The translations under genes and the position numbers were made by a program. Below, piece after piece: positions 60,437 through 60,462 of a DNA stretch of 64,000 bases (the first letter of the stretch is position 1; every line of letters starts with the position of its first letter). The notes under the pieces were generated by a model. It worked only from the letters and a program-made list of their open reading frames with translations. It ran no database searches and had not been told where the DNA came from. The DNA comes from Escherichia coli. GTDB lineage: Bacteria > Pseudomonadota > Gammaproteobacteria > Enterobacterales > Enterobacteriaceae. The stretch lies in assembly GCF_016026235.1 (NCBI RefSeq), contig NZ_CP065613.1; one strand, 5' to 3'.

Positions 60437-60462
60437 CTCCAATTGTGATGTTTGTTGTTTTA
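60437..60462 (-). promoter_or_regulatory. dppA 5' leader C/A-rich element (GcvB sRNA target) next to the SD
   Basis: minus-strand AAACAACAAACAUCACAAUUGGAG seen immediately upstream of the dppA ATG; known GcvB pairing site. Confidence 0.5.

Follow-up and report, generated by a model that had tools for sequence, protein, structure and literature searches.

The C/A-rich element directly upstream of dppA in the analysed stretch of Escherichia coli DNA (64,000 nucleotides, hereafter the window) is very probably the GcvB R1 target of dppA mRNA, with a dual function as translation enhancer and repression site. The original prediction, which took this stretch for the classical GcvB pairing region of dppA, is borne out by identity with E. 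coli K-12, orthology with Salmonella, pairing with R1, conservation in the Enterobacterales, and published verification. A GcvB site before dppA is textbook, already-known biology. Finding it intact adds no new biology and confirms that, on its target side, the circuit is of the standard form in this strain.

The dppA coding sequence lies on the minus strand (58822..60429, ATG at 60429..60427) and encodes a 535-aa periplasmic dipeptide-binding protein. The open reading frame is assigned to full-length DppA by NCBIfam (equivalog NF043070; 1177 bits, cutoff 1005; all 535 profile positions covered), and five consecutive head-to-tail open reading frames of dppABCDF size make the operon layout complete. 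The C/A-rich string named in the original prediction, AAACAACAAACAUCACAAUUGGAG (24 nt), matches the DNA exactly as the reverse complement of 60437..60460. Its location on the minus strand had been left unstated, and the interval given for it, 60437..60462, is longer by two bases, UA, on the 5' side. AAACAACAAACAUCACAAUUGGAG spans -31..-8 relative to the A of the dppA ATG at 60429. The interval 60437..60462 (minus strand) holds both the C/A-rich element and the Shine-Dalgarno sequence GGAG (60437..60440, minus strand), which is located 7 nt 5' of the AUG; (T)GGAG is kept there in nearly all Enterobacterales leaders.

The 20 nt preceding GGAG, AAACAACAAACAUCACAAUU (-31..-12), abut the Shine-Dalgarno sequence, are 85% C+A, and contain no G, and the G-free run across the element extends over 23 nt (60463..60441). 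The 15-nt block ACAACAAACAUCACA (60444..60458, minus strand; -29..-15) carries four ACA motifs. Four non-overlapping ACA motifs within 15 nt occur only here in the window, against 0.17 such clusters expected, and the chance that one starts in one given 30-nt stretch of one strand is about 4e-5. A count allowing overlaps gave 2 clusters against 3.8 expected, a figure inflated by ACACA repeats, and the motifs were therefore recounted without overlaps. Directly 5' of the element, the predicted fold contains a small hairpin, AACCC-ACUGCAAA-GGGUU (60462..60479, minus strand). We take the dppA leader to be about 165 nt long. The corresponding Salmonella fragment used by Tree 2014 was "the 5' 166 nt of DppA mRNA" (PMC4104026). 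A consensus promoter scan of the minus strand over 60430-60900 found no site for the dppA promoter.

The leader of the window is that of E. coli at large. Over -61..+10 of dppA, the window agrees with E. coli K-12 MG1655 at every position (100% identity), and of the 5,422 E. coli genome records that match, 5,067 have an identity of 99% or more. The 501-nt segment 60300..60800, which extends from the leader through nt 130 of dppA, was found in 5,422/5,426 complete E. coli genomes, always at dppA. In the gap between dppA and eptB, the window carries naRNA4 (CssrE), a REP-derived RNA (66.9 bits, 60999..61080, plus strand), and tRNA-Pro(CGG) (61173..61249, minus strand) with a promoter-like site at 61290..61262. 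In E. coli E2865 (locus L002, NZ_AP018808.1), an IS621 transposase and a hypothetical open reading frame lie directly upstream of dppA, followed further on by yijF and yijE in place of proK and eptB. This arrangement indicates a rearrangement in E2865 that ends near the dppA leader, with the 501-nt leader segment still 100% identical to that of the window.

Orthology to the Salmonella site can be followed at nucleotide resolution. Yang 2014 randomised the ACA block of the Salmonella leader with the oligonucleotide ppN85, GGGCAAA-[NNNNNNTNNNTCNNN]-ATTGGAGCAGAAGAATG (PMC3879156). The Salmonella wild-type block deduced from ppN85, ACAACATACATCACA, is identical to the window block, ACAACAAACATCACA, at 14 of 15 positions, with all four ACA motifs in place; the single difference is at the seventh position, which is U in Salmonella and A in E. 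coli. Both blocks stand in the same register to the Shine-Dalgarno sequence, and AUUGGAGCAGAA downstream is identical. Salmonella also has a hairpin at the same place 5' of the block, although its sequence is different. The block is the core of the GcvB target and, by analogy with the Salmonella ortholog on which Yang 2014 established the enhancer function, would also be a translation enhancer.

The element is conserved far beyond these two genera. One genome per species was scanned with a coding-sequence anchor, YCSEGSPEGFNP, which is unbiased toward the motif, and yielded 120 loci, from which 70 Enterobacterales leaders were compared with 45 outgroup homologues from Alpha-, Beta-, and Deltaproteobacteria and Marinomonas. 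To our knowledge, the outgroup orders do not carry GcvB, and we assumed them to be without it. The Enterobacterales leaders are 77-93% C+A with at most 2% G at -30..-16, and 68 of the 70 have at least two ACA motifs in -36..-8, where the median number is 4 against 0 in the outgroup. The C+A fraction is 0.82 in the Enterobacterales and 0.59 in the outgroup. With the E. coli R1 used against every species' leader, the R1 duplex is at -29.1 kcal/mol in the Enterobacterales and -18.8 kcal/mol in the outgroup, and the longest Watson-Crick run to R1 is 10 and 5, respectively. The Mann-Whitney p values for these differences range from 8e-9 to 4e-19 and are inflated by the shared ancestry of the species. 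When the two parts of each Enterobacterales leader are compared, pairing is far better in the proximal region than in -110..-60 (Wilcoxon 7e-12). In Yersinia, Serratia, Photorhabdus, and Dickeya, the remaining leader is unalignable but the ACA block is retained. It is absent upstream of the dppA homologue in a Pantoea insect-symbiont MAG, a Plesiomonas MAG, Grimontia, and Enterovibrio (loci L005, L064, L080, and L110), the last two genera being both Vibrionales sampled.

The predicted pairing between the element and GcvB was obtained with the gcvB locus of E2865, which scores 199 bits with Rfam RF00022 (gathering score 42) and is divergent from gcvA; a GcvB probe, used only to reach this locus, matched 5,425 of 5,426 E. 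coli genomes. R1, a G/U-rich stretch, is unpaired in the Rfam consensus structure of GcvB. When R1 windows (nt 60-98) were paired locally with the dppA leader, the energy minimum fell on the flagged element, so the R1 pairing anticipated by the original prediction is found. The core duplex forms between GcvB R1 nt 62-83 and dppA -31..-11 (60440..60460, minus strand) and consists of two G-U pairs, ten Watson-Crick pairs (UUGUGAUGUU with AACAUCACAA), one bulged G, and seven Watson-Crick pairs. The core has a hybridisation energy of -23.8 kcal/mol, and a 5-bp contact added upstream of it brings this value to -27.9 kcal/mol. Opening dppA -31..-11 costs 1.1 kcal/mol, the lowest value among the 13 sites evaluated, and the accessibility-corrected total is -14.2 kcal/mol. 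The predicted centroid fold of the leader leaves the C/A block through the AUG unpaired, and both the opening energy and this fold predict an accessible, single-stranded target site. Three other pairings were set aside. Extending the duplex by GcvB nt 86-90 and the hairpin loop GCAAA (-42..-38) worsens the corrected energy from -14.2 to -10.6 kcal/mol, and the loop contact is also disfavored by the report that GcvB nt 84-88 fall outside the dppA pairing (Yang 2014, PMC3879156). A second R1 minimum at dppA -111..-80 has -22.5 kcal/mol, which is no better than the shuffle mean of -23.1 kcal/mol. Full-length GcvB against the full leader gave a meaningless -93.5 kcal/mol with the two RNAs zipped end to end, and local windows were used instead.

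In vivo repression, footprinting, Hfq dependence, and enhancer activity at this site are known from the literature. DppA is made constitutively in ΔgcvB E. coli (PMC3658540), and Miyakoshi 2022 (Table 1, PMC9299463) includes dppA among the R1 targets, with verification in E. coli as well as in Salmonella. The R1-dppA interaction was demonstrated by a ΔR1 mutant and footprinting, as stated by Tree 2014, who also observed a ternary complex of Hfq, GcvB, and the dppA leader (PMC4104026). We infer that the same GcvB control operates in the window's own strain. In the absence of GcvB, the four ACA motifs would provide an unstructured, G-free platform just before the Shine-Dalgarno sequence, and translation initiation would be strongly favored. 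GcvB, made under GcvA control, would be abundant in rich medium or at high glycine, and Hfq would help its single-stranded G/U-rich R1 anneal to dppA -31..-11. The resulting duplex would cover the ACA enhancer and reach the first base of the Shine-Dalgarno sequence, so that 30S binding would be blocked and synthesis of the Dpp dipeptide permease would fall.

Pairing by itself discriminates poorly, and this bears on the alternative of a fortuitous resemblance to a GcvB site. Of 500 dinucleotide-shuffled leaders, 28 also attain a hybridisation energy of -27.9 kcal/mol (z = -1.9), several GC-rich coding windows have a hybridisation energy below that of dppA, and 10-nt Watson-Crick seeds to R1 give four hits at three places in the window, which is at chance level (2.4 hits expected). 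Three other sites in the window tie with dppA after accessibility correction, at about -14 to -15 kcal/mol; one is the yhjE start region, and the other two, at 32857..32888 (plus strand, -15.1 kcal/mol) and 50916..50885 (minus strand, -14.2 kcal/mol), may simply be false positives of the method. Since the G/U-rich R1 pairs in silico with many sequences, the pairing test has little power, and a predicted pairing by itself can neither prove nor rule out a GcvB site. Judged within the window by energy, seeds, and composition, this element is at or near chance level; it is non-random by its position and its conservation across species. The evidence that does DISCRIMINATE comes in three lines, namely identity, orthology at nucleotide resolution, and conservation. 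The element does not differ from the K-12 sequence used in experiments and is the ortholog of the block mapped in Salmonella, its position is conserved across 70 Enterobacterales while the flanking leader diverges, and an ACA cluster at this position is itself expected by chance at only about 4e-5. The conservation, K-12 identity, and Salmonella orthology effectively refute a chance resemblance. As a methodological by-product, asking whether pairing is predicted cannot separate a genuine, proven site from shuffled sequence, whereas the two can be told apart by accessibility, conservation, and placement with respect to the ribosome-binding site.

Conservation leads to another question, namely whether the block is kept purely as a translation enhancer, with ACA motifs in a G-free ribosome landing pad, while its complementarity to GcvB is irrelevant in this strain. 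In a Salmonella dppA-lacZ fusion, deletion of the 15-nt block lowered expression by 96%, and randomisation of the four ACAs reduced it by a factor of more than 100, so that the block is required irrespective of GcvB (Yang 2014, PMC3879156). Since the ACA motifs are needed for dppA translation, the enhancer role alone could explain the retention of the block, and retention alone is no proof of maintained GcvB control. The in silico pairing with R1 is statistically unexceptional, as described above, and the sRNA side can be lost: the laboratory strain Top10F' has an 8-nt deletion in GcvB R1 (Tree 2014, PMC4104026), which tells us that such loss does happen. We nevertheless consider a pure enhancer quite improbable. 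The two roles are compatible, and the same paper shows the 15-nt dppA block to be both enhancer and GcvB target (Yang 2014, PMC3879156). Loss of gcvB derepresses DppA in E. coli (PMC3658540), dppA ranks with the most abundant partners of GcvB in CLASH, MAPS, and RIL-seq, the last with thousands of chimeras (PMC9299463), and gcvB is present in 5,422 of 5,426 complete E. coli genomes. The block is also absent in the outgroup homologues, from orders assumed to lack GcvB, though an enhancer should serve anywhere. A further explanation, to which we give very little credence, is that the A-rich element with its AAC/AAA triplets is mainly an Hfq-binding site, with dppA repressed by Hfq itself or by a different sRNA. 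Hfq has an about 10-fold higher affinity for the dppA leader than for GcvB, and the leader competes for the distal face, to which it is predicted to bind (PMC4104026). The ARN motif is matched by the AAC-AAC-AAA triplets of the block and by an (ARN)4 tract located at -77..-65. However, Hfq binding belongs to the GcvB mechanism, as the ternary complex illustrates (PMC4104026). The upstream A-tract matches ARN better than the block does, since ACA has C where ARN wants a purine, and we found no other sRNA reported for this dppA site. A GcvB target that doubles as an enhancer is thus the reading we retain.

The upstream tract may contribute to this GcvB target as well. The A-rich sequence AAAAAACAAAAAA (60494..60506, minus strand; -77..-65) is located in a predicted hairpin loop and reads (ARN)4; within it, AAAAACAAAAAA, starting at -76, forms four consecutive A-R-N triplets, where at least 3-4 are taken to define the motif. 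The longest A-run upstream of the C/A block has a median length of 6 in the Enterobacterales versus 3 in the outgroups, and many Enterobacterales genera have, immediately 5' of the ACA block, an A-run and then a segment resembling GGTCTGGCGG. From its sequence, the tract is a plausible candidate for an Hfq distal-face site, and we infer that the Hfq binding of the leader is located here. A more far-reaching idea, which we regard as speculative and rather unlikely, is that the A-tract with the GGTCTGGCGG-like segment, at a fixed short distance 5' of the ACA block throughout the Enterobacterales, is an obligatory Hfq-loading module that sets the efficiency with which GcvB finds dppA. If this were true, the high rank of dppA among GcvB partners would stem from the two-part architecture, not from the duplex itself.

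On the sRNA side, the Rfam scan of the 64-kb window detected GadY, ES205, three rdlD copies, naRNA4, and one tRNA, and neither gcvB nor hfq is located within the window. Across the species, 5,422 of 5,426 complete genomes have gcvB. Intact sRNA control of dipeptide uptake in this strain is thus shown for the target side, and it depends also on gcvB and hfq, which lie outside the window.

Another part of the window contains a second candidate for R1. The open reading frame 22740..24062 (plus strand) encodes a 440-aa metabolite/H+ symporter (TIGR00883, 510 bits), which we take to be yhjE from the K-12 gene order. Its start region (22737..22768, plus strand) reads AUGCAAGCAACAGCCACAACACUCGACCA, in which CACAACA, the consensus target of R1, occurs exactly. 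Pairing with R1 has a hybridisation energy of -30.5 kcal/mol and a corrected total of -15.1 kcal/mol, as good as for dppA, and yhjE has been reported to interact physically with GcvB. The yhjE start region may thus be a bona fide R1 target. The three tandem matches to the rdlD antitoxin RNA (82-89 bits, 52051..53082, plus strand) lie between the bcs genes and an open reading frame resembling a serine/threonine transporter (53381..54715). K-12 presumably has a single ldrD/rdlD copy at this locus, and the type I toxin-antitoxin array may be expanded in the window relative to K-12. Beyond eptB, a 176-aa open reading frame (63287..63817, minus strand) with a signal peptide resembles a fimbrial major subunit. 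In K-12, yhjX is presumably the next gene at this position, and a putative strain-specific, lpf-like fimbrial island may lie beyond eptB.

The dppA element of the window shows no difference of substance from the site described in K-12 and Salmonella (Urbanowski 2000; Sharma 2007; Pulvermacher 2008; Yang 2014). It shares with the GcvB R1 site of K-12 and Salmonella Typhimurium dppA the same R1 partner, the same abutment to the Shine-Dalgarno sequence, and the same AUUGGAG distance. Other C/A-rich R1 targets, among them oppA, gltI, livJ, livK, argT, and yifK, likewise offer a G-poor, single-stranded element at or upstream of the ribosome-binding site to the same R1, and in yifK the ACA motifs are also enhancers (Yang 2014, PMC3879156). 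Compared with these targets, the duplex of dppA stands out by its length of about 20 bp, and a 4-nt mutation did not break it (Tree 2014, PMC4104026); moreover, the consensus CACAACA of R1 targets is not exact in dppA, which has CAACAAACAUCACAA. The GcvB-dppA pair is a founding example of sRNA control of ABC transporters, and two RNAs are known to act against this control. AgvB, a prophage-encoded anti-sRNA, mimics a C/A-rich R1 target, occupies GcvB R1, and restores DppA translation; a response to AgvB was shown with a 5'UTR-GFP fusion of dppA from E. coli O157 (PMC4104026). The sponge RNA SroC pairs with GcvB at two sites outside R1 and raises dpp and opp mRNA levels. AgvB and SroC are thus decoys or antagonists that relieve GcvB repression, whereas the dppA element is part of the regulated mRNA.
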